A stretch of 64,000 bases of DNA, taken from positions 186,001 through 250,000 of the forward strand of contig NW_027590175.1 of NCBI RefSeq assembly GCF_964213995.1. Reading direction: 5' to 3'. Below, piece by piece: positions 2,134-51,760 of this stretch (position 1 is its first letter; the number at the start of each line of letters is the position of its first letter). Position numbers and translations under genes: made by a program. Origin of the DNA: Mustelus asterias. Lineage: Eukaryota. The notes under the pieces were generated by a model. That model was not told the DNA's origin. It saw only the letters and a program-made list of their open reading frames with translations, and searched no databases.

Positions 2134-2225
2134 GGCTCGTTGGGCGAGAGGTATGACTCAGGCCTGTGGGCGTAAACATCTACAAGCGTGTGAGCGATCT
2201 CGGGTTCACATGCCGGGCTCGATCC
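2134..2225 (+). pseudogene. intron-containing tRNA-Pro pseudogene
   Basis: Degenerate paralogue of 21276, with an 18-nt insert CGTAAACATCTACAAGCG after the anticodon. Confidence 0.75.
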
Positions 2226-8912: not shown

Positions 8913-8984
8913 TATTTCTGCCCGAATCAAACCGGGGACCTTTCGCGTATAAGGCAAATGTGACAACCACTGCACCACAGAAAC
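8913..8984 (-). pseudogene. tRNA-Val pseudogene
   Basis: Reverse complement GTTTCTGTGGTGCAGTGGTTGTCAC...GAAAGGTCCCCGG. Confidence 0.75.
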
Positions 8985-20250: not shown

Positions 20251-21275
20251 AAAATACATCTCTTTGCTTATTATTTTCATCTCAGATCATTTTCATCAGC
20301 GACAAGTATTTCCTTCAGAATATCCTGTTTAGATGGGACATAATTGGTTCCTTCAGCGAATGACAACACCCACTGTGTTTGCCAGGACATGAAGTCGACA
20401 GCGAGCTGAAATAGTCTCACAAGTTGCTGAAGTTATCGAGGTGTACAAAAGTCTAAAGGGAACTAATGGAATAAACGTCGACCAAATGATTCCTCTATGG
20501 GGCAATGTAGAACAAGAAGATGCAGGTATAGGTTGAGAGGCGGTGGATTTAAACCTGAAATGAGGAGGAAGTACTTCTCGCAGAGAGTGTTCTCGCAGAG
20601 TGGTGAATCTCTGGAACTCGCTGCCCCAGAGCGTGGTGGGTTCTGAAAGATTGAATGGTTTCAAAAGGAGATAGATATATTTCTGATGTTTCAAAAAATG
20701 TTTAAAGGGGAAAGAAGAACAGATGGGAAAGTAGACTTGAGACCAGGGAGAGATCAGCCATGATCTGATTGAATGACGAAGCAGGTTCGAAGGGCTGAAT
20801 TTGCCGACTTGAGCTCCTGATTCCTATGTTTCTATATTACTGAGTGGAACTTTCAAAACTCAAGACCCACCAACCTCATCAATGTGGCTCCAGTGTAATC
20901 TATGTACATTACATCCACCGGTTCCCCTTTATCCACAGCACATGTGTGCCCTGGAAAGAACTTCGGAACGGCCTCATTCTGTGGTTAATCGCTTTGTGAT
21001 TCTCTGTTTCCGTCATCTCACCTCTCCTGACTTCCACCCAACAGGATGTTATGTTTCCTCCCTCCTGCATCTCATTTGCGCAAAACGTTCTACATTTTTA
21101 AACATCCCCAGTTTCAGTGAAAGGGTATAGAGATGAAAGATAAGCTTTGTTTCTCTGTGCACACACGCTCTCTGACTTTCTGAGCTATTCCAGCATTTTC
21201 AACTTTCAATGCAGATGTATGATCTATTTTGGATGACAATGAAAATATAATTATTTGGCAGATCTCTGCAACGAA

Positions 21276-21365
21276 GGCTCGTTGGTCTAGGGGTATGATT
21301 CTCGCTTTGGGTGTTGAAATTCACAAGCTTGCGAGAGGTCTCGGGTTCAAATCCCGGACGAGCCC
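21276..21365 (+). tRNA. tRNA-Pro(TGG) with 18-nt intron (21312-21329)
   Basis: Exons equal the vertebrate Pro-TGG sequence except one T.G wobble in the T-stem; intron between nt 37 and 38; TTTT shortly downstream. Confidence 0.9.
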
Positions 21366-22710
21366 ACATTTTGCTGCTGTTGCATATTGGACAAGGGACT
21401 GGTTCTGTAAATTTATTTTCCTTGCACACGGCGGGATTGCTTCACATGGGCTTTGGGTTGAGAACCTGAGCACAATCTAACACCATAGCAGGCTCACAAG
21501 TAAATCGAAACATTTTCAATGGTTGACTCTACTGGCAGACACGAATTGAGAGGACCTCATTCCTTCAGACGACCACCCACGTTATGGGAGACTCGGGGGA
21601 AATAGCAGGACCCCTTGCAGAGATATCTGAATCATCGAAAGCCCAGGTGATCTGCTTTGAATACTGGAGGGTGGGAAATGTCGTGCTTCTGTTTAAAAAG
21701 GGTTGCAGGGAGAAGCGTGGGAGCTACAGGCCGCTGAGCCTCACATCTGTAGTGGGTAAGTTGTTCGAAGGCAGTCTGAGAAACAGGATCCCGAGGCATT
21801 TAGAGAGGCAAGGACTGATCAGAATGGCTCTGTGAGTGGAAAATCATGTCTCACGAATTTTTATTGAGTTTTTTGAAAGGGTAACCAAGAAGGTCGATGA
21901 GGGCAGTGTAATTGATGTTGTCTACATGGACTTTAGTAGGCATTTGACAAGATACCGCATGGCAGGTTGTTGCATCAAGTTAAATCTTACGGTATTCCGC
22001 GTGAGGTAGCCAAATGGATGTAAAATTGGCTTGATGACAGAAGACAGAGGCTGGTTGTAGAGAGTTGCTTTCAAATTGGAGGCCTGTCACCAGCGGTGCG
22101 CCTCAGGGTCGGTCCTGGTTCCACTGTTATTTGTCATTTATTTTAACGATTTTGATGAGCATTTAGCAGGCATGGTTAGTTATTTTGCAGATGACACCAA
22201 GATTGGAGGCATTGTGCACAGTGAAGAAGGTTATCGAGGATTGCAACGGGATCTTGATCAACTGGGCTAGTGGGCTGATGAATGGCAAATGGAGTTTGTT
22301 TGAGATGAATGCGAGGTGATGCATTTTGGTAGATCGAACCAGGACAGGACTTGCTCAATTAATGGACGGGCGTTGGTGAGAGTTTTAGAAAAAAAGATAT
22401 CTCGGGGTACAGTTCATCGCTCCTTCAAAGTTTAGTCACAGGTGGAAAGAGTGGGAGAGAAGGCATTCAGCATGCTTGGTTTCATTGGCCAGAACATTGA
22501 ACACAGCAGTTGGGACGTCTTGTTGAAGTTGTACAAGACATTGGTAAGGCCACACTTGGAATACTGTGTACAACTCTGGCCACCCTATTATAGAAAGGAT
22601 ATTATTAAACGAGAAGGAATGCAGAAAAGATTTACTCGGATGATGCCGGGACTGATATTTTGAGTTATAAGGAGAGGATGGATAGCCTTGGACTTTTTTC
22701 TCTGGAACAT

Positions 22711-24432
22711 CATAGAATCCCTACAGTACAGAAAGAGGCCATTCGGCCCATCGAGTCTGCACCGACAACAATCCCACCCAGGCTCTACCCCCATATCCAC
22801 CCACTAATCCCTCCAACCTACGCATCTCAGGACACTAAGGGCAATTTTTAGCATGGCCAATCAACCTAACCCGCCCATCTTTGGACTGTGGGAGGAAACC
22901 AGAGCACCCGGAGGAAACCCACGCAAACACGAGGAGAATGTGCAAACTCCACACAGGTCCCGTTATTTAAGAAGGGTAGGAAGGATAACCCGGGTAATTA
23001 TAGGCCGGTGAGCTTGACGTCCGTGGTGGGGAAGTTGTTGGAGAAAATTGTTAGAGATAGGATGTATGCGCATTTAGAAAGGAATAAACTCATTAACGAT
23101 AGTCAGCATGGTTTTGTGAGAGGGAGGTCATGCCTCACTCACCTGGTGGAGTTTTTTGAAGAAGTGACCAAAATGGTTGACGAGGGAAGGGCCGTGGATG
23201 TCGTCTATATGGACTTTAGTAAAGCGTTTGACAAAGTCCCTCATGGTAGGCTGGTGAAAAAGGTTGGATCTCATGGGATAAAGGGGGAGGTGGCTAGATG
23301 GGTGGAGAACTGGCTTGGTCACAGAAGACAGAGGGTGGTAGTGGAAGGGTCTTTTTCCAGCTGGAGGCCTGTGACTAGTGGTGTTCCGCAGGGGTCTGTA
23401 TTGGGACCTCTGCTGTTTGTGATTTATATAAATGATCTGGAAGAAGGTGTAACTGGGGTGATCAGTAAGTTTGCGGACGACACAAAATTGGCAGGACTTG
23501 CAGATAGTGAGGAGCATTGTCAGAAGCTACAGAAGGATATAGATAGGCTGGAAATTTGGGCAAAGAAATGGCAGATGGAGTTCAATCCTGATGAATGCGA
23601 AGTGATGCATTTTGGTATAAATAATGTAGGGAGGAGCTATATGATAAATGGCAGAACCATAAAGGGTGTAGATACGCAGAGGGACCTGGGTGTGCAAGTC
23701 CACAGATCCTTGAAAGTGACGTCACAGGTGGAGAAGGTGGTGAAGAAGGCATATGGCATGCTTGCCTTTATAGGACGGGGCATAGAGTATAAAAGTTGGG
23801 ATCTGATGTTGCAGATGTATAGAACGTTGGTTCGGCCGCATCTGGAATACTGCGTCCAGTTCTGGTCACCACACTACCAGAAGGACTTGGAGGCTTTGGA
23901 GAGAGTACAGAGGAGGTTTACCAGGATGTTACCTGGTATGGAGGGGCTTAGTTATGAGGAGAGATTGGGTAAACTGGGGTTGTTCTCCCTGGAAAGACGG
24001 AGGATGAGGGGAAACTTAATAGAGGTGTATAAAATTATGAAAGGCATAGATAGGGTGAACGGCGGGAATCTTTTCCCCAGGTCGGTGGTGACGTTCACGA
24101 GGGGTCATAGGTTCAAGGTGAAGGGGGGAAGGTTTAACACAGATATCAGACGGACATATTTTACACAGAGGGTGGTGGGGGCCTGGAATGCGCTGCCAGG
24201 CAAGGTGGTGGAGGCGGACACACTGGGAACGTTTAAGACTTATCCAGACAGCCATATGAACGGAGTGGGAATGCAGGGATACAAAAGAATGGTCCAGTTT
24301 GGACCAGCGCGGGCTTGGAGGGCATATTCCTGTGCTGTATTGTTCTTTGTACAGTGACCCAAGCCGGGAATCGAACCCAGGTCGCAGAAGCTATGAAGCA
24401 GCAGTGCTAACCACTGTGCTACCGTGCCACCC
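22711..24432 (-). mobile_element. HE1-like SINE split in two (22711-22956 and 24351-24432)
   Basis: CACACAG...ACAGTGACCCAAGCCGGG is continuous once the inner CR1 is removed. Confidence 0.8.
22957..24350 (+). mobile_element. young 5'-truncated CR1 with open RT frame
   Basis: Uninterrupted ORF: NYRPVSLTS, QHGF, DFSKAFD, GVPQGSVLGP, FADD; tail TGTTCTTTGT. Confidence 0.92.
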
Positions 24433-33848: not shown

Positions 33849-34732
33849 GAGGTTACGTTTGAGATTCCGGTAACAAGTTAGATGGTGAAATAAGCTGTCG
33901 GGGGGAGACAGACATTTTAGATTAATGAGCAAGAAGATTTAGTTACGGAGGGAGAGAAGTAGAAAGAACAGGACCTACTTGAAATTGTTGAGAAAGTTAT
34001 GTGTTGATGTTCAAAGTGATGAATGGGTATTTTGGTCTTCATTATCAGGGGAATGAAATGCAAGAATCAAGAAGTCTGCCACAATTGTAACCTGGTTCTT
34101 CTGAGACCACAGCTGCAACATTCTGTGCAGTTTTGATCCCCACGGTGGAGAACTGATAGACTTTCATTGGAGGTTGCAGAGGGAATGTTCGAAAGATTGG
34201 ATCCTGAGATGAGGGAGTTGTCCTATGATGATGTTCCCAGGAGCAGGCTGAGGGTAAGAGAGTGGGTTTTCTGACTTTAATTAATTATTTAATTTTTCAG
34301 TTAATTTTGGATTTAAAATCGGAAGTTTTTTTCAAAACCGGAAGTCGGGCCAGGAGTGGCCTGGGGAAGTTTTTGGAGGGTTTAAAAAGGGCTTACCTTG
34401 GAGGTTCAGCTTCATTGTTCCCAGGAGCAGGCTGAGGGTAAGAGAGTGGGTTTTCTGACTTTAATTAATTATTTATTTTTTCAGTTAATTTTGGGTTTAA
34501 AATCGGAGGTTTTTTTCAAAACCGGAAGTAGGGCCAGCAGTGGCCTGGGGAAGTTTTTGGAGGGTTTAAAAGTGCACCAAAGTATACAGCGGGCAGCATC
34601 GTAGTGGGCAGCAGAGTGAGTGGGAAGTTGAGTGAGCTGTCAGGGCTTTGGCTCACAGGGCTTGGACGAGCAGGGGTGAGTTTTTGTTTCCTTACATTCT
34701 TATTAACTTTTCACTGTCTAACTTGACATAAA

Positions 34733-35671
34733 GTGTCCAGTATGAGTGTGAAACCAGTGTGTTGTTCCCAGTGTAGGATGTGGGAGGTCCTGGAGGCATC
34801 TGGCCTCCCGGACATCCACATCTGTGAGGGGTGTGTCGAGCTGCGGTTCCTGAGGGACCGTGTTAGGGAGCTGGAACTGCAGCTCGAGGATCTTAGGCTG
34901 ATGAGGGAGAATGAGGAGGTGATAGACAAGAGCTATCATCAGGTGGTCACACCAGGGCCACGGGAGGAGGCCAAGTGGGTGACGGCCAGGAAGGGTAAGG
35001 CTAGGGTGGTTGAGAGCACCCCAGTGGATTTGCCCCTGCACAACAAGTACTCCTGCTTGAATACTGCTGGGGGGGACAGCCCGCCTGGGGGAAGCAACAG
35101 TGGCCGTGTCTCCGCAGTGGAGTCCAGCCCTGTAACTCAGAGGGCTAAGGAAAAGAGGAGGAAGGCGATATTAATCGGGGACTCGATGGTGAAGGGGACA
35201 GACAGGCGTTTCTGCGGAGGTAGGCGGGATTCTCGCATGGTGGTCTGCCTCCCTGGGGCCGGGATCCAGGATGTCGCTAGTCGCGTCCCGGAAATCCTGA
35301 GGTGGGAGGGAGAGGAGCCTGAGGTAGCGGTACATATTGGTACCGCTGATGTGGGTAGGAAGGGGGAAGGGGTCATGAAAAGGAAGTACAGGGAATTCGG
35401 GAGACAGCTGAGAAAGAGGAAAGCAAAGGTAGTAATCTCAGGATTACTGCCTGTGCCACGGGAAGGTGAGGGCAGGAATGGAGTGAGGTGGAAGATGAAT
35501 GTGTGGCTGAGGAACTGGTGCAGGGGGCAGGGATTCAGGTTCCTGGACCATTGGGACCTCTTTAGGGGCAGGGGTGATCTGTATACAAAAAACGGGTGGA
35601 ACTTGAATCACACGGGGACCAATATCCTGGCCGGTAGGTTGGCTAAGGCTACTGGGGAGAATTTAAACTAG
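34733..35671 (+). CDS. CR1 ORF1p (Cys/His finger, coiled coil, SGNH-esterase-like domain)
   Basis: CSQC...HICEGC, LRDRVRELELQLEDL, LIGDS, HIGT; intact 312 aa. Confidence 0.88.
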   Translation: MSSMSVKPVCCSQCRMWEVLEASGLPDIHICEGCVELRFLRDRVRELELQLEDLRLMRENEEVIDKSYHQVVTPGPREEAKWVTARKGKARVVESTPVDLPLHNKYSCLNTAGGDSPPGGSNSGRVSAVESSPVTQRAKEKRRKAILIGDSMVKGTDRRFCGGRRDSRMVVCLPGAGIQDVASRVPEILRWEGEEPEVAVHIGTADVGRKGEGVMKRKYREFGRQLRKRKAKVVISGLLPVPREGEGRNGVRWKMNVWLRNWCRGQGFRFLDHWDLFRGRGDLYTKNGWNLNHTGTNILAGRLAKATGENLN

Positions 35672-35879
35672 ATAGGTTGGGGGGAGGGGAGCTAGAAGAG
35701 TTGACGAGGATCAAGGAACTAATTGATGGGGGGGAGGATGCAGGGGTAAGGGGAATTACAAAATTAATGGTAGAGGAGAGGGTGCAAGTGAATGAAGGCG
35801 GTAATTTAGATAAGGGAGTAGAGGGAGAGGGTGTTCGCGACTCATCAAAGCGGGTCCAGATAAAAGCTGGAATAAGGAC

Positions 35880-38800
35880 ACTTTGCCTGAATGCACTAAG
35901 CATTCGGAACAAGGTAAATGAGTTGATGGTGCAAATCAGCACAAGTGGGTACGATCTAGTGGCCATTACAGAAACAAAGAACAAACAAAGAACAAAGAAC
36001 AATACAGCACAGGAACAGGCCCTTCTGCCCTCCAAGCCCGCGCCGCTCCCCGGTCCAGGATTGAATCCTGAATCCAGGATCCCCGCCCAATTTTCCAGCC
36101 TATCTACATACCAATATCCTATCCACCGAGCTGTCCCTCACAGCTACGATGCTTTGTTCATTACAACCTATTAACTTACCCCCACCCCCCCATTCCAGAC
36201 CATGTGATCTGGCTGAAACGTGGCTGAAAGGTGACCAGGACTGGGAGATGAATATCCAGGGGTAGCAGGCGTTTAGGAAGAATAGACAGGAAGGAAAAGG
36301 TGGTGGGGTCGCGCTATTAATAAGAGATAATATCAGGGTAGTACTGAGGGATGACATAGGCTCTGAGGAACAAAACGTGGAATCATTATGGGGAGAGATG
36401 AGGAATAGTAGAGGGAGAAAGACACTAGTAGGTGTGGTATATAGGCCCCCGAATAATAATGTTGAGGTAGGGAGGGCTATAAACAAGCAGATAAGGGATG
36501 CGTGTAAAAACGGAACGGCAATAATCATGGGGGACTTCAACATGCACATTGACTGGCAGACTCAAGTCGGTAAGGGTGGAATGGAGGAAGAGTTCTTAGA
36601 ATGCTGTCGGGATAGTTTCCTTGAACAGCATGTTACGGAACCGACGAGGGAACGAGCTATTTTGGATCTGGTATTGTGTAACGAGGTAGGTAGAATTAAG
36701 GATCTTATTGTGAAGGACCCTCTTGGGTCTAGTGACCACAATATGGTCGAATTTCTGATTCAGATGGAAGAGGAGAAAGTTTGGTCCCAAACCAGTGTCC
36801 TCTGTTTGAACAGAGGGAAATATGATAGGATGAGGGATGAATTGGCTAAGGTAGACTGGGAGAGCAGGCTGGCAGGTAGGATAGCTGAGGAACAGTGGAG
36901 GATTTTTAAGGAGATCCTTTTCAGTTCTCAGCAAAAATATATTCCAGCAAAAAACAAGGATTGTAAGAAAAGGGAGAACCAGCCGTGGATAACGAAGGAA
37001 ATAAAGGAGAGTATTAAAATAAAAACAGCTGCGTACAGAGTGGCCAAAAATAGTGGAGAAACAAGTGATTGGGAAAAATTTAAGAAACAACAAAGAGAGA
37101 CTAAGAAAGCGATAAAGAAAAGAAGGATAGACTATGAAGCTAGGCTAGCAATTAATATAAAAAATGATAGTAAAAGTTTTTATAAATATATAAAAAGGAA
37201 TAGAGTGGCTAGAGTGAATGTTGGACCCTTGGAGGACGAGAGGGGGGAGTTAATAGTGGGAAATGAGGATATGGCTGAGTCTTTAAATAAGTTTTTTGTG
37301 TCGGTCTTCACAGTGGAGGACACAAATAGTTTGCCAAATATTAACGATAGAGGGTTGGCAGCAGGAGAAATACTTAATACAATTAATGTTACCAGAGAGG
37401 CAGTGCTGGGTAGACTAATGGGACTGAAGGTGGACAAGTCCCCGGGTCCGGATGGAATGCATCCCAGGGTATTGAAAGAAATGTCAGAAGTAATAGTGGA
37501 TGCGTTAGTGATTGTTTATCAAAACTCGTTGCATTCTGGGGTAGTGCCGGTTGATTGGAAAACGGCTAATGTTACGCCGCTGTTTAAAAAAAGGAAGGAG
37601 ACAAAAGGGGGGTAACCATAGGCCGGTCAGCTTAACGTCTGTAGTAGGGAAAATGCTGGAATCCATTATTAAAGAGGAAATTGCAGGGCATCTGGATAGA
37701 AATGGTTCAATCAATCAGACGCAGCATGGATTCATGAGGGGAAAGTCGTGCTTGACGAACATGTTGGATTTTTATGAAGATGTGACTAGGGCGGTTGATG
37801 GAGGAGAACCGGTGGATGCGGTGTTTTTGGATTTCCAAAAGGCGTTTGATAAGGTGCCCCATAAAAGGCTGCTGAAGAAGATTAGGGCACACGGAGTTGG
37901 GGGTAGTGTGTTAAAGTTGATTGGGGACTGGCTATCCGACAGGAAGCAAAGAGTCGGAATAAATGGGTGTTTTTCCGGTTGGAGGAAGGTAACTAGTGGC
38001 GTGCCGCAGGGATCGGTACTCGGGCCGCAACTATTTACCATTTATATAGATGATCTGGAGGAGGGGACGGAGTGTAGGGTAACGAAGTTTGCAGACGACA
38101 CAAAGATAAGTGGAAAAGTGAATCGTGTGGAGGACGGAGAAGATTTGCAGAGAGATTTGGACAGGCTGAGTGAGTGGGCGAGGATATGGCAAATAGAGTA
38201 TAACGTTGATAAATGCGAGGTTATACACTTTGGAGGAAATAATAACAAATGGGATTACTATCTCAATGGAAACAAATTAAAACATGCTACCGTGCAAAGG
38301 GACCTGGGGGTCCTTGTGCATGAGACGCAAAAGCCCAGTCTGCAGGTACAACAGGTGATCAAGAAGGCAAATGGGATGTTGGCCTATATTGCGAAGGGGA
38401 TAGAATATAAAAGCAGGGATGTCTTGATGCACCTGTACAGGGCATTGGTGAGGCCGCAGCTGGAATACTGTGTGCAGTATTGGTCCCCTTATATGAGGAA
38501 GGATATATTGGCATTGGAGGGAGTGCAGAGAAGGTTCACCAGGTTGATACCGGAGATGAGGGGTTTGGATTATGAGGAGAGGCTGAGGAGATTGGGTTTG
38601 TACTCGTTGGAGTTTGGAAGGATGAGGGGGGATCTTATGGAGACTTATAAGATAATGCGGGGGCTGGATAGGGTGGAGGCGGAGAGATTCTTTCCACTTA
38701 GTAAGGAAGATAAAACTAGAGGACACAGCCTCAAAATAAAGGGGGGTCGGTTTAAGACAGAGTTGAGGAGGAACGTCTTCTCCCAGAGGGTGGTGAATCT

Positions 38801-38909
38801 CTGGAATTCTCTGCCCACTGAGGTGGTGGAGGCTACCTCGCTGAATATGTTTAAAGCGCGGATGGATGGATTCCTGATCGGTAAGGGAATTAAGGGTTCT
38901 GGGGATTAG
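35880..38909 (+). pseudogene. CR1 ORF2 (APE endonuclease + RT), disrupted
   Basis: CLNA, ITET, GGGV, MGDFN, SDH, FADD motifs; insert at 35974-36210, TAG at 36263, frameshift near 37590. Confidence 0.9.
35974..36210 (-). mobile_element. short CR1-tailed insert in ORF2
   Basis: (TTCTTTG)n tail and 3' end like the 22957 family; GAAAC on both sides. Confidence 0.7.
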
Positions 38910-46070: not shown

Positions 46071-48154
46071 ACGTTGAAATGCATCGCGATCATGTTATTT
46101 AATGATAATGTTACTGAAATTCATTAAAAGCAATGGAGTTTGGAAAGGCCATCAGGAAGCATGAGCTGCTCCTTCACTGATTCAGGTAAACCTGAACTGC
46201 GCAACAAACAGAAATCATCTCACGTCAGAAACACAATGAGCTGCAGTGAAGGGCCGGCATCATTTAAACTGTCCTTAAGATCGTCTCTTCCCAATTTCCA
46301 GCCAGAAATTACAAGGGAACCTCCTGTTGAATTTGCTCAGGGTCTGCACTTAAGGACACGAGGCGAGATTATGTTTTATATCTTCATCCAGGCAATAACC
46401 CACATTTGTTTTCAGAGTTTGGATGGGAGCAATAAATCTTCAATTCCAGACCAGTAATCTAAACAGCAGGGAAAGAGTCAAACTCTAACCACCAGACCAG
46501 CAGCTTGCAGCGTGTTTTAGAATTTAATTTATCCACGCTGCTTTTGTTACTTTAATTTTCACGCCACTTTCGCCACAAACAGCTTTCTCCTGCAAAATGG
46601 CGCCCTCTGTTTCAACGCCAGTGATGTGTTCAGCCAATGACAACATATAACAAACACTCCAGTGCAATTATCACTTTCGCTTCCGACGGTTCGAAACCGG
46701 ACAGAAATATTTCCAAATGCTTTTCAATGCAGAGTGCGGGAAAAAGTTTCATTATTCAGTGTCAATGTAAACGGTAAAATCTGACCAATTACCAGACAGA
46801 TTTTACCTTGCAACAACTTCTCAATCGTTCGTACTATGCACCCTATCACTGTCCTTCTCTTTCTGTGTTTGTTCTTGAACTGTTGCACAGGTGAAACTTC
46901 CAGCTCTGATATAAACTTGCAAACCTCACTCGGCTGATTCTAATAGATCTGTTTTTGATCAGAGAGTAAATCAGATCATTATTAATGGTTTGCTGAGAGC
47001 AAATAGTCCTCTTTTCCAAAGTGGGAATTGAAACCAGACATCACAAGGAGAGTGTTGAACATGAGCCACTGGACTACCATGGAAACCGGTGAACTGTGTT
47101 TTTCAAACTGACTTCACACATGTCCCTTTGCTCATTATTTTCCGCTCAGATCTTTTTCACTTGTGACACGTTTCCTCTTCAAAATGTCCTGTTTGGGTGG
47201 AACATAATTGCCTCCTTCAGCCAATGACAACACGGATTGAATTCGCTGGGTCATGGAATTGATAGTGAGGTGAAATGGTCCCACAAAATGCTAACGTTTA
47301 GAAGGATGAGGAGGGAATCTGATAGATGTATATAAAATTCTAAATGGATTGATAAAGAAAAGGTAGACCAAAAGTTTCTTCTTATGGGGCAATCAAGGAC
47401 AAGAGCTCACGTGTATAGTTTGAGAGCCCGTGGATTTAAAACTGAGATGGGGAGAAACTACTTCTCGTAAAGGGTGGTGAATTGATGGAACTCGCTGCTC
47501 CATAGCGCGTTGGAATCTGAATCGTTGAATGATTTCAAGAAGGGATAGAAATATTTCTGATGAAGAAAAACACATTAAAGGGATATGGAGAATAGGTGGG
47601 GAGGTGGATTTCAGATCAAGGAGAGGTCAACCATGATCTGATTGAATGGCAGAGCAGGATCACAGAGCTGAATTTGCCGACATCTGCTCCCAATTCCTAT
47701 GTTCCTATGTTTCTATGTATAGCGTTCAATTGTCAAGCCCACCAACCTCATCAGTACGGTTCTGTTGAAATATATGTACAGTACGCCCTCTGGTTCCCCT
47801 TCACCCACAACGCATGTGAGTCCTGCAAGTAAATTTGTAATCGTCTCATTCTGTGGTGTAATCATTCTGTCATTCTCTGTTTCCCTCACTTATTTTCCCC
47901 TGGCTTCCACCATATCAGATGTTGTTATGTTTCCTCCCTGCTGGATTTCACTTGTTTTAAAATTCCTACATTTCTAAACATTCCGAATGTTAACGAAAGG
48001 TCATGGAGGTGAAAGTTTATCTTTTGTTTCCCTATACACAGACGCTGTCTGACTTCCTGAGTTTTTCCAACATTATCACATTTCATTGCAAATTTCTGAT
48101 CCGCTGTTAGATGGCGATGAAAATATATTTAGTTGACATGCTTTTTTCAATGCT

Positions 48155-48244
48155 GGCTTTTTGGTCAATGGGTATGACTCTCGGTTTGGGTGTTAAAATC
48201 CGCAGGCTTGCGAGGGGTCCCTGGTTTAAATCCTGGACAAGCCC
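48155..48244 (+). pseudogene. intron-containing tRNA-Pro(TGG), degenerate
   Basis: 90 nt; intron TGTTAAAATCCGCAGGCT (18 nt). Confidence 0.8.
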
Positions 48245-48344
48245 TTGCTTTGTAATGGACAAGTCGTGGATTTTGTTAGTTTATTTCCCGTGACATGGCG
48301 GAATTGGTTCACATGGGACATGATTTGAGAACCTGAGAACACAC

Positions 48345-50369: not shown

Positions 50370-51760
50370 AGGGGGTCCACCTCCGGGTGCCATTCACTCA
50401 CTCATCTGTCCCAATTGAAACAAGAAGTCGGACGGTGAGAGTCCAGATTGCTCAGCGTTACACCAAGGAAACGACAGCACTCTGACCTATGACACCAGAC
50501 CTTGCTCCCAAAACACACACACACACACAGACACACACACTTGCTCAATAATTGCCAGTCTCCAGTCGAATGGTTGCTGTTGTGTGACACCAACCGCTTC
50601 TTTCTTTCAGCAGATGATTTAAAGAGTAGCGAAAGATGAAAAAAAATTGCTGATGTCGGCACCTATCGCCAGAGGCTCAGCATTGTGCAGTGTAATGGAA
50701 GTTGAACTGGCTGACAAATTGTCCTCCCTATTCCTGCTTTATGAGGAACTGAAATAAAAGATCCATCGACAAATCAATCCTCAACAATGGCAAAGAAGAG
50801 CAAGGGTCCGCCTAAATTTAAACTCGGTTCGCTGGATTCAGAGTGGTCACCATTAGACCAGAGGACCTACAACATAGCAGCCGGCTGCAAATGGTCACTC
50901 AAAGCATTTGACCCACTTGATGTTGCTGCCGCATTGAATGAAAAAGGTCACATGTTTTGAGTAACCATTTGCATCAGGTGGCTCTGTTCCTGTTTCTGTG
51001 GTGTGATGGTGGGCACTCTGGACTCCGAATGCAGTAAGCGGAGTTCAGAACTCGGTGAAAGATTGTTTTTATTTGCTAAAGACGATGATGAGTTTGCTGA
51101 AGCGCATTTCATTTTTAATTCTCAGAAAGTGGAAAATTAAACACTGAGGAAATTTCAGCAAATTCCAGCGCAATCACACTGCAGACGATGCAGCGAATGA
51201 CTCACCTGGCGTCATTGCATCAGCTCCAGAGAACACAAAGGGCTGAGAAACAGAGACACCACAGTGGGCAGGGGGTCCACCGACATGTGTCACTCATTCA
51301 CTCATCTGTCCCAATTTAAACCAGAATTCGGAGGCGAGAGGCCAGAGTGCGAACCATTACACCATGGAATCGACAGCAGTCTTTTCTCCAAAACGCACAC
51401 ACTCTCTTTCTCTCTCTCACGCACTCACACACACATTTTGCTCAATAATTGCCAGACTCCAATCGAATTGTTATTGTGCAACACCAACTGCTTCTATCTT
51501 TCAACAGAGGAGTTAAAGAGTGGCGAAAAGGTGAAAAGCACTGATGTTGCAGGCATCTGTCGCCAGAGGTTCAGCAATGTGCATTGTAACAGCAGCTGAA
51601 CTGGCTGACAAATTGTCCTCTCGATTCGGACTTGGTGAGAAAATTAAACGCCCTTTAGTCTATCCATCATCTGCAAATTAAAGCAAGGCTCCGCCGAAAT
51701 TTGAACTCGGATCGCTGGATTCAGAGTCCAGAGTGCTCACCATTACACCACGGAACCCAG
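50370..51760. repeat. second tRNA-Gln cassette array
   Basis: Gln relics at about 50440(- half), 50803(-), 50991(+), 51341(- half) and 51686(-); paralogous to 28.0-31.2 kb. Confidence 0.75.
51686..51757 (-). tRNA. tRNA-Gln(CTG), near intact
   Basis: All stems pair with two wobbles; B-box C61T. Confidence 0.78.

Follow-up and report, generated by a model that had tools for sequence, protein, structure and literature searches.

The window, by which we mean the whole 64,000-nt stretch of DNA analysed here, contains at positions 21276-21365 of the forward strand an intact gene for tRNA-Pro(UGG) in which two 36-nt exons are separated by an 18-nt insert. To our knowledge, only four other tRNA types have been reported to be spliced in humans, and the Pro body and TGG anticodon place this gene outside the four known vertebrate spliced families. 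The locus raises the question whether this is a working, spliced tRNA gene and, if so, how its intron arose. The evidence below points to an intact gene, one of about 180 intron-bearing Pro genes, that is likely transcribed and spliced; we assign a probability of roughly three in four to this reading, and likewise to the general one that a known type of intron occurs, and is likely spliced, in new vertebrate tRNA families.

ARAGORN run with intron search identified the gene as tRNA-Pro(tgg) with an 18-nt intron in the anticodon loop. Without intron search the same program miscalled it as Gln, an artefact of that setting, and an Rfam search at the gathering score missed it. The exons equal those of the genome's intact intronless Pro-TGG genes at 71 of 72 bases. 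There is no difference in the 5' exon, and the sole deviation, T49, makes a U-G pair in the T stem. T49 also marks the 13-nt intron subfamily and, like certain acceptor-stem variants of Arg-UCG, belongs to the exon variants restricted to the clusters. A preliminary description of this DNA had seen a near-perfect Pro-TGG gene split after G37 by 18 nt, which both the sequence and ARAGORN bear out. On sequence alone the insert boundaries can slide by two bases, since the insert and exon 2 both start with TG. In the cloverleaf, the CAAG near the 3' end of the intron pairs with U32-U33-U34-G35, the antepenultimate G lying opposite position 32, just as that description had it. The resulting helix (U32-G(-3), U33-A, U34-A, G35-C) leaves a three-base bulge. 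A four-pair helix with a three-base bulge is also found in TSEN structures (accessible text of PMC10539383), and to this extent the earlier claim of TSEN-type pairing geometry stands, but the proximal pair between position 32 and intron base -3 is U-G, the weak form. The insert length falls inside the intron range of 6-133 nt given in the available part of PMC4090602; across the Pro intron family the lengths were 11-19 nt in the loci read. Free folding did not single out the precursor, its minimum free energy fold being no better than those of shuffled sequences (z = -1.5). With A and B boxes, an intact mature body and a downstream T4 run that is likely the Pol III terminator, the gene showed every sequence-level feature tested for a canonical eukaryotic (TSEN-type) intron tRNA gene (Table 1).

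Table 1. Features of the tRNA-Pro(UGG) gene, its paralogues in the window and related loci elsewhere; positions are those of the window unless a contig is named.
Feature	Position	Strand	Remarks
5' exon, tRNA-Pro(UGG)	21276..21311	+	acceptor 5' strand, A box, D arm; anticodon TGG 21308-21310; G37 21311
Intron, 18 nt (TGTTGAAATTCACAAGCT), position 37/38	21312..21329	+	bases 21324-21327 pair with 21306-21309
3' exon	21330..21365	+	T49 variant 21341, B box 21344-21354, discriminator C 21365
T4 run	21369..21372	+	seen in the sequence; putative Pol III terminator
Duplicated block carrying the gene	20259..21514	+	71.5% identity to 1207-2385, 72.5% to 47123-48341
Decayed paralogue (pseudogene)	2134..2224	+	18-nt insert ~2171-2188, 20 exon differences, U33 lost
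Decayed paralogue (probable pseudogene)	48155..48244	+	18-nt insert 48191-48208, 11 exon differences
Intron-bearing Arg-UCG loci	contigs C85, C102, C103, C130, C141, C155, C72, C75		L125-L144, L286-L305
Stray intronless-Pro copies	G000:C3:141.7-146.7 Mb, C4:147.46 Mb, C17:72.23 Mb		L100, L347, L360-L364

The gene has two paralogues in the window, at 2134 and 48155, and the preliminary description regarded the intron as conserved in all three. Both paralogues do keep an 18-nt insert, with the ends described, but conservation was overstated because both copies are decayed. Their exon differences (Table 1) were counted against an intact family copy (L004). ARAGORN made no call on the 2134 copy even at a lowered threshold, and neither copy has a T4 run within 25 nt. 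From their sequences we take both for decayed duplicates, the one at 2134 a pseudogene and the one at 48155 probably so. The three copies lie in duplicated blocks of 1.2-2.4 kb at 70-72% identity; the flanks have drifted by about 28%, whereas the exons of the 21276 copy have not.

The window as a whole (1-64000) belongs to a tRNA cluster of the birth-and-death type, with members for Lys, Cys, Asn, Gln, Glu, Leu, Val-like and Pro. It holds 10 Rfam hits, many of them decayed, and duplicated blocks that are mostly 65-80% identical, interleaved with LINE-type reading frames at 22870-24354 and 34727-38906. Two ARAGORN calls in it disagree with the tRNA body: an 'Ile-TAT' at 8913-8984 (minus strand) has a Val-type body and an 'Arg-CCG' at 50991-51063 (plus strand) a Gln-type body. 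Intron copies with Pro bodies were likewise called Thr, Ser, Ala or Arg (L161, L314, L313, L157). Anticodon-switched decayed copies mislead ARAGORN, so automatic by-anticodon counts of shark intron tRNAs need care.

The genome (G000, 3.68 Gb) was searched with exact-core patterns, and all counts obtained are lower bounds. The patterns preselect intact copies, and those for TGG-intron, AGG/CGG-intron and intronless genes differ slightly from one another. Pro-TGG cores with an insert numbered 95 (69 of 18 nt, 25 of 13 nt and 1 of 17 nt), a count inflated by near-identical copies that are possibly uncollapsed haplotypes, 80 of the 95 being distinct with 150-nt flanks. The Pro-TGG intron family has two classes, of 13 and 18 nt, and 95 of 100 TGG cores have an intron. 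Inserts were also found in 83 Pro-AGG/CGG cores (62 AGG, 21 CGG), giving a total of 178 intron-bearing Pro cores versus 9 intronless ones (5 TGG, 3 AGG and 1 CGG; 12 with a looser pattern). Seven of these nine are perfect, terminator-bearing genes on the large contigs C3, C4, C10 and C17, and all three anticodons are represented. The preliminary description had named the occurrence of other high-scoring intron Pro-TGG copies as a check, and this is answered by the 95 copies in this genome. Since they lie on many contigs and a reversed control pattern gave 0 matches, chance or an assembly artefact is ruled out. A BLAST-type search returned 662 candidates; nearly all of the 40 that were scored were full-length intron copies.

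Most intron-bearing Pro genes sit in tRNA clusters on C71, C85 and a large number of small contigs. ARAGORN, applied to a 400-kb sample of this cluster DNA, called 39 genes, of which 12 are interrupted by introns; all 12 have Pro or Arg bodies, and Arg-TCG is among them. Genome-wide, 50 of 51 exact-core Arg-UCG matches carry an intron (13-22 nt in the loci read), the single intronless gene being on C24. Arg-UCU, a known spliced family that served as positive control, had introns in 52 of 52 matches, mostly of 18 nt and in the same clusters as Pro. The suggestion of a fifth spliced family in cartilaginous fish thus holds insofar as a Pro family outside the known four is supported, but it was an under-call, Pro-AGG, Pro-CGG and Arg-UCG having introns too. 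Its taxonomic part stands for the one genome tested here; beyond that there is a preprint text, discussed below, that names no tRNA types. The 21276 gene probably belongs to a functional gene family, which is larger than the preliminary description had it.

A general intron excess over all tRNA types was not supported. Genome-wide patterns for Leu-AAG/TAG/CAG gave no intron family and 1 match, a local duplication, and those for Lys/Cys/Phe and for Arg-ACG/CCG, Trp and elongator Met gave 0 intron-bearing matches, each pattern being controlled by 1-2 intronless matches in fetched DNA. A Ser/Leu-TAA pattern, which lacked a positive control, gave 0 intron matches; for Gly, Asp, His, Ala, Ile-AAT, Thr, Val, Asn, Gln and Glu the coverage was that of the sampled 400 kb of cluster DNA, with introns in Pro and Arg bodies alone. 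A generic search on A-box/B-box spacing was swamped by 26,592 matches, mostly SINE. Much of this number came from a very abundant repeat with A and B boxes ca. 52 nt apart, in appearance a second SINE head of tRNA origin that has a long extra arm. A single-copy, near-intact Leu-AAG gene (L375; G000:C71:13736020, minus strand) has a 13-nt tandem duplication across the anticodon loop. When this is read as an insert after G37, bases -3 to -6 give, by eye, four Watson-Crick pairs with positions 32-35, and the duplication is possibly a newborn intron.

The pairing between intron and anticodon loop was analysed over 58 distinct combinations of anticodon and intron, one of them from a TGT-mutant copy. 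Between positions 32-35 and intron bases -3 to -6, 215 of 232 pairs form, compared with 113 ± 7 in letter shuffles (maximum 143 in 5000) and 88-131 in slid registers; because the sequences are related, these numbers are not probabilities. Base -5, the partner of position 34, follows the anticodon: it is T in AGG types (13 of 14), A or G in TGG types (31 of 36) and G in CGG types (4 of 7). Facing U32, base -3 is a purine in 53 of the 58 Pro types; the Arg-TCG rows, which have C32, show G there in 21 of 21. In the main Pro-CGG subfamily (4 of 7 CGG types) the proximal pair is U-U, and in most types the three remaining pairs of the helix are Watson-Crick. Such pairing, with three anticodons and two tRNA bodies, is hard to obtain without a splicing-type constraint. 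According to the accessible text of PMC6614914, a Drosophila Tyr reporter with a proximal U-G pair yielded hardly any product, and with U-A it yielded less than with C-G, but there the rest of the helix is weak, whereas in the shark Pro gene it is Watson-Crick. The Arg-UCU and Pro-AGG introns of the clusters are both 18 nt long and both end in a TTAGC-type motif. The likeness is limited to the last bases and might be a trace of intron transfer between tRNA types.

For the analysis of exon conservation, loci were fetched for all 95 TGG copies and for 20 of the 83 AGG/CGG copies (115 copies). At the 41 exon positions fixed by no pattern, 63 of the 115 copies show at most one difference, and another 34 differ at three positions or more. 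The exons are identical to those of intact intronless genes in 32 of the 95 TGG copies, which have 15 different introns among them. A T4 run lies within 20 nt in 13 of these 32 perfect-exon copies; the corresponding figures are 50 of 115 for all intron copies and 7 of 9 for the intronless ones. Among 89 distinct intron copies, taken unfiltered, there are 2366 pairs whose flanks align at 60% or less (55% flank identity, the background level), and these pairs are 88% identical at the 41 free exon positions versus 58% in the introns. The exons are constant across subfamilies whose flanks and introns have diverged, which is what selection on the mature tRNA predicts.

As to the origin of the introns, we lean towards the view that they were gained in this animal's lineage and then spread within clusters as segments were duplicated and anticodons switched. 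Gain is favoured because animal surveys found introns essentially absent elsewhere, the exons are of vertebrate type and metagenome Pro genes have other acceptor stems. The opposing account, in which old eukaryotic introns were retained in this lineage and lost in bony vertebrates, we consider possible without preferring it. It can draw on the commonness of intron-bearing Pro genes with the same anticodon-arm core in other eukaryotes, with at least 127 copies in 121 metagenome stretches, on an A or G at -3 in 64 of 83 distinct introns among the metagenome matches listed, and on subfamilies old enough for unalignable flanks; the axis of Fig. S7B in PMC12168002, which covers eukaryotes, also has UCG, AGG and UGG within its first ten anticodons (axis labels only). 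However, 0 of 127 copies among the metagenome matches listed have the exon sequence of this genome, and two CGG copies that carry a TGG-type intron and flanks show spread by anticodon change. Retention would also need many losses, since introns are reported as essentially absent from other metazoan tRNAs in the accessible text of PMC12530127. The intron-bearing Pro genes of the metagenomes, which among the matches listed all have other acceptor stems, are probably fungal; as evidence on animals they are uninformative.

Stray copies outside the clusters bear on transcription. In about ten dispersed copies of independent origin the intron is retained, homology in the 5' flank ends 0-11 nt from the gene, and a short trailer is directly followed by a SINE. 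In 96 cluster copies, by contrast, the shared flanks have a median length of 200 nt on either side. In many of the stray copies a complete pre-tRNA is fused without a gap to the head of a single SINE family, which may resemble HE1. Six loci, about three events, belong to the subfamily of the window gene (L016, L018, L019, L021, L026, L031); further stray copies of this pre-tRNA/SINE kind are L033, L044, L068, L077, L100, L105-L107, L122, L123, L287, L347 and L364. The read-through trailers in the chimeras are 43-54 nt long, and convincing target-site duplications were found for none of the chimeras tested. These structures suggest that chimeric retroposition of pre-tRNAs is frequent in this genome, and they would indicate past germ-line transcription of the intron genes. 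That the Pro family is itself a tRNA-derived SINE was rejected, as 96 cluster copies share flanks, many of them with perfect exons, and the dispersed chimeras are only a minority.

One chimera, L099 (G000:C3:136697708), has joined exons with a 4-nt leader and a 43-nt trailer. The trailer matches the intron-bearing subfamily of L035/L036 only and none of the intronless genes; in the other intronless copies among the 17 examined, the trailers are unlike those of intron families. Downstream of the trailer follows ca. 1.27 kb of a 5'-truncated CR1-type LINE with a 3' repeat tail. An inverted partial duplicate of 354 nt, 96% identical, lies 326 nt upstream of the chimera (L306:2032-3099, G000:C3:136697032-136698099) and begins exactly at the first base of exon 2, and the leader overlaps a local 35-nt hairpin at the 5' junction. 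In the simplest reading L099 would be a spliced pre-tRNA captured by LINE reverse transcription, from which we infer precise intron removal. A template switch to an intronless transcript is possible, because the intronless TGG genes of C3, whose stray copies cluster there, are 5.5 Mb away from the locus. That L099 is left over from an intronless forerunner of the cluster genes is disfavoured, since its trailer falls inside one intron subfamily. Most stray copies of the intronless Pro genes share a contig with intact intronless genes and lie no more than ca. 4.5 Mb from them, a pattern of local hopping. In U6/L1 chimeras a Pol III transcript is reportedly joined 5' of the 3' part of a retroelement, and the shark chimeras share this arrangement with them and with tRNA/L1 chimeras. 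The primate tRNA/L1 chimeras are mostly antisense halves (accessible text of PMC11838501), whereas in the shark complete pre-tRNAs, trailer included, are fused in sense orientation to a SINE or a CR1-type LINE.

The reading of Pro as a spliced family is supported jointly by the counts over the genome, the conservation of the exons, the covariation between anticodon loop and intron, and the retrocopy fossils. In the proposed pathway, Pol III would transcribe the gene from the internal A and B boxes and the precursor would fold with the anticodon-intron helix; TSEN, as suggested by the geometry, would then cut both intron ends and RTCB would ligate the exons, yielding a mature tRNA-Pro the same as or like that of the few intronless genes. 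Splicing is not forced, since seven intact intronless Pro genes cover all three anticodons. The intron copies could instead be mostly silent or unspliceable passengers of amplified clusters, with an intact look of the exons that stems from recent duplication or from conversion with intronless genes as donors, and with tRNA-Pro supplied by the seven intronless genes. We consider this unlikely. Many decayed copies, both window paralogues included, a T4 run near fewer than half of the intron copies, weak U-G or U-U proximal pairs and the presence of intact intronless Pro genes all agree with it, but identical exons occur across subfamilies with unalignable flanks and different intron lengths, and conversion would have to replace both exons while sparing the intron. 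Furthermore, the intron 3' end covaries with the anticodon loop, the retrocopies point to transcription, and for Arg-UCG there is only 1 intronless gene versus 50.

Slow or tissue-limited splicing, for example in oocytes, would make precursor, halves or freed intron the main output and the intron a brake on a very large gene dosage. The weak proximal pairs, the excess of unspliced retrocopies (ca. 10 events) over the one spliced, and the leaky termination seen in the 43-54 nt read-through trailers fit such a scheme, to which we nevertheless give little credence: exon constancy fits selection on the mature tRNA, trailer-bearing precursors are expected to be mostly unspliced anyway, and the remaining three helix pairs are Watson-Crick in most types.

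Close to the present findings is the published observation of abundant intron tRNA loci in large clusters in sharks, obtained with tRNAscan-SE (Squalomix preprint 10.1101/2025.06.08.657570, 2025). They are very likely the same loci as those described here, and the Pro and Arg-UCG families probably underlie the unexplained excess of intron tRNAs reported for sharks. As far as it is accessible, the preprint text is without isotype names, pairing or selection analysis, or splicing evidence. No paper retrieved by our literature search names Pro or Arg-UCG among the intron-containing tRNAs of a vertebrate; most subscription papers lay outside this search, and GtRNAdb or the figure and supplements of the preprint may list them. 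The available parts of PMC8450103, PMC4536317 and PMC2888827 added nothing on Pro. Automatic annotation with tRNAscan-SE has probably recorded these loci already, the novelty lying in recognition and not in mechanism.

An intron-containing tRNA-Pro(UGG) is known from S. cerevisiae, which has 10 such genes (accessible text of PMC4090602). The shark genes share the amino acid and the intron site with fungal tRNA-Pro, and U32 faces a purine at -3 in most non-vertebrate copies among the matches listed. Unlike in fungi, the shark exons are of vertebrate type (a sequence shared by 0 of 127 copies among the metagenome matches listed) and intronless isodecoders coexist. In the accessible text of PMC12168002 and PMC12530127 the animal intron tRNAs named are only Tyr-GUA, Ile-UAU, Leu-CAA and Arg-UCU, and the latter source states that introns are essentially absent from metazoan tRNAs beyond these. 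Common to these four families and shark Pro are a single short intron at 37/38, a pyrimidine at 32 paired with -3, a four-pair helix and a three-base bulge. The differences are in the anticodons (Pro-UGG/AGG/CGG and Arg-UCG) and in the Pro proximal pair, which is U-G or U-A and not C-G. The four extra intron anticodon classes of this genome, in numbers described as equal to or above canonical Arg-UCU, depart from the published confinement of introns to four animal tRNAs.

The genome departs from a second statement as well, that genes sharing an anticodon tend either all to have an intron or all to lack one (PMC4090602, available part). In the shark, unlike in the four known families, intron-bearing and intronless genes with identical exons coexist. 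Possibly, sharks gained introns in Pro-UGG, Pro-AGG, Pro-CGG and Arg-UCG, doubling the vertebrate spliced set, and these genes would supply most such tRNAs alongside intronless genes of identical mature sequence. The reason why tRNA introns persist is reported as unknown (accessible text of PMC12168002), and if this proposal is true the coexistence would be a built-in test of the role of a tRNA intron and of its gain. Intron gain and loss could be mapped on the vertebrate tree, and, since the same mature sequence is encoded with or without an intron, modification, expression timing and intron circles could be compared within one animal.
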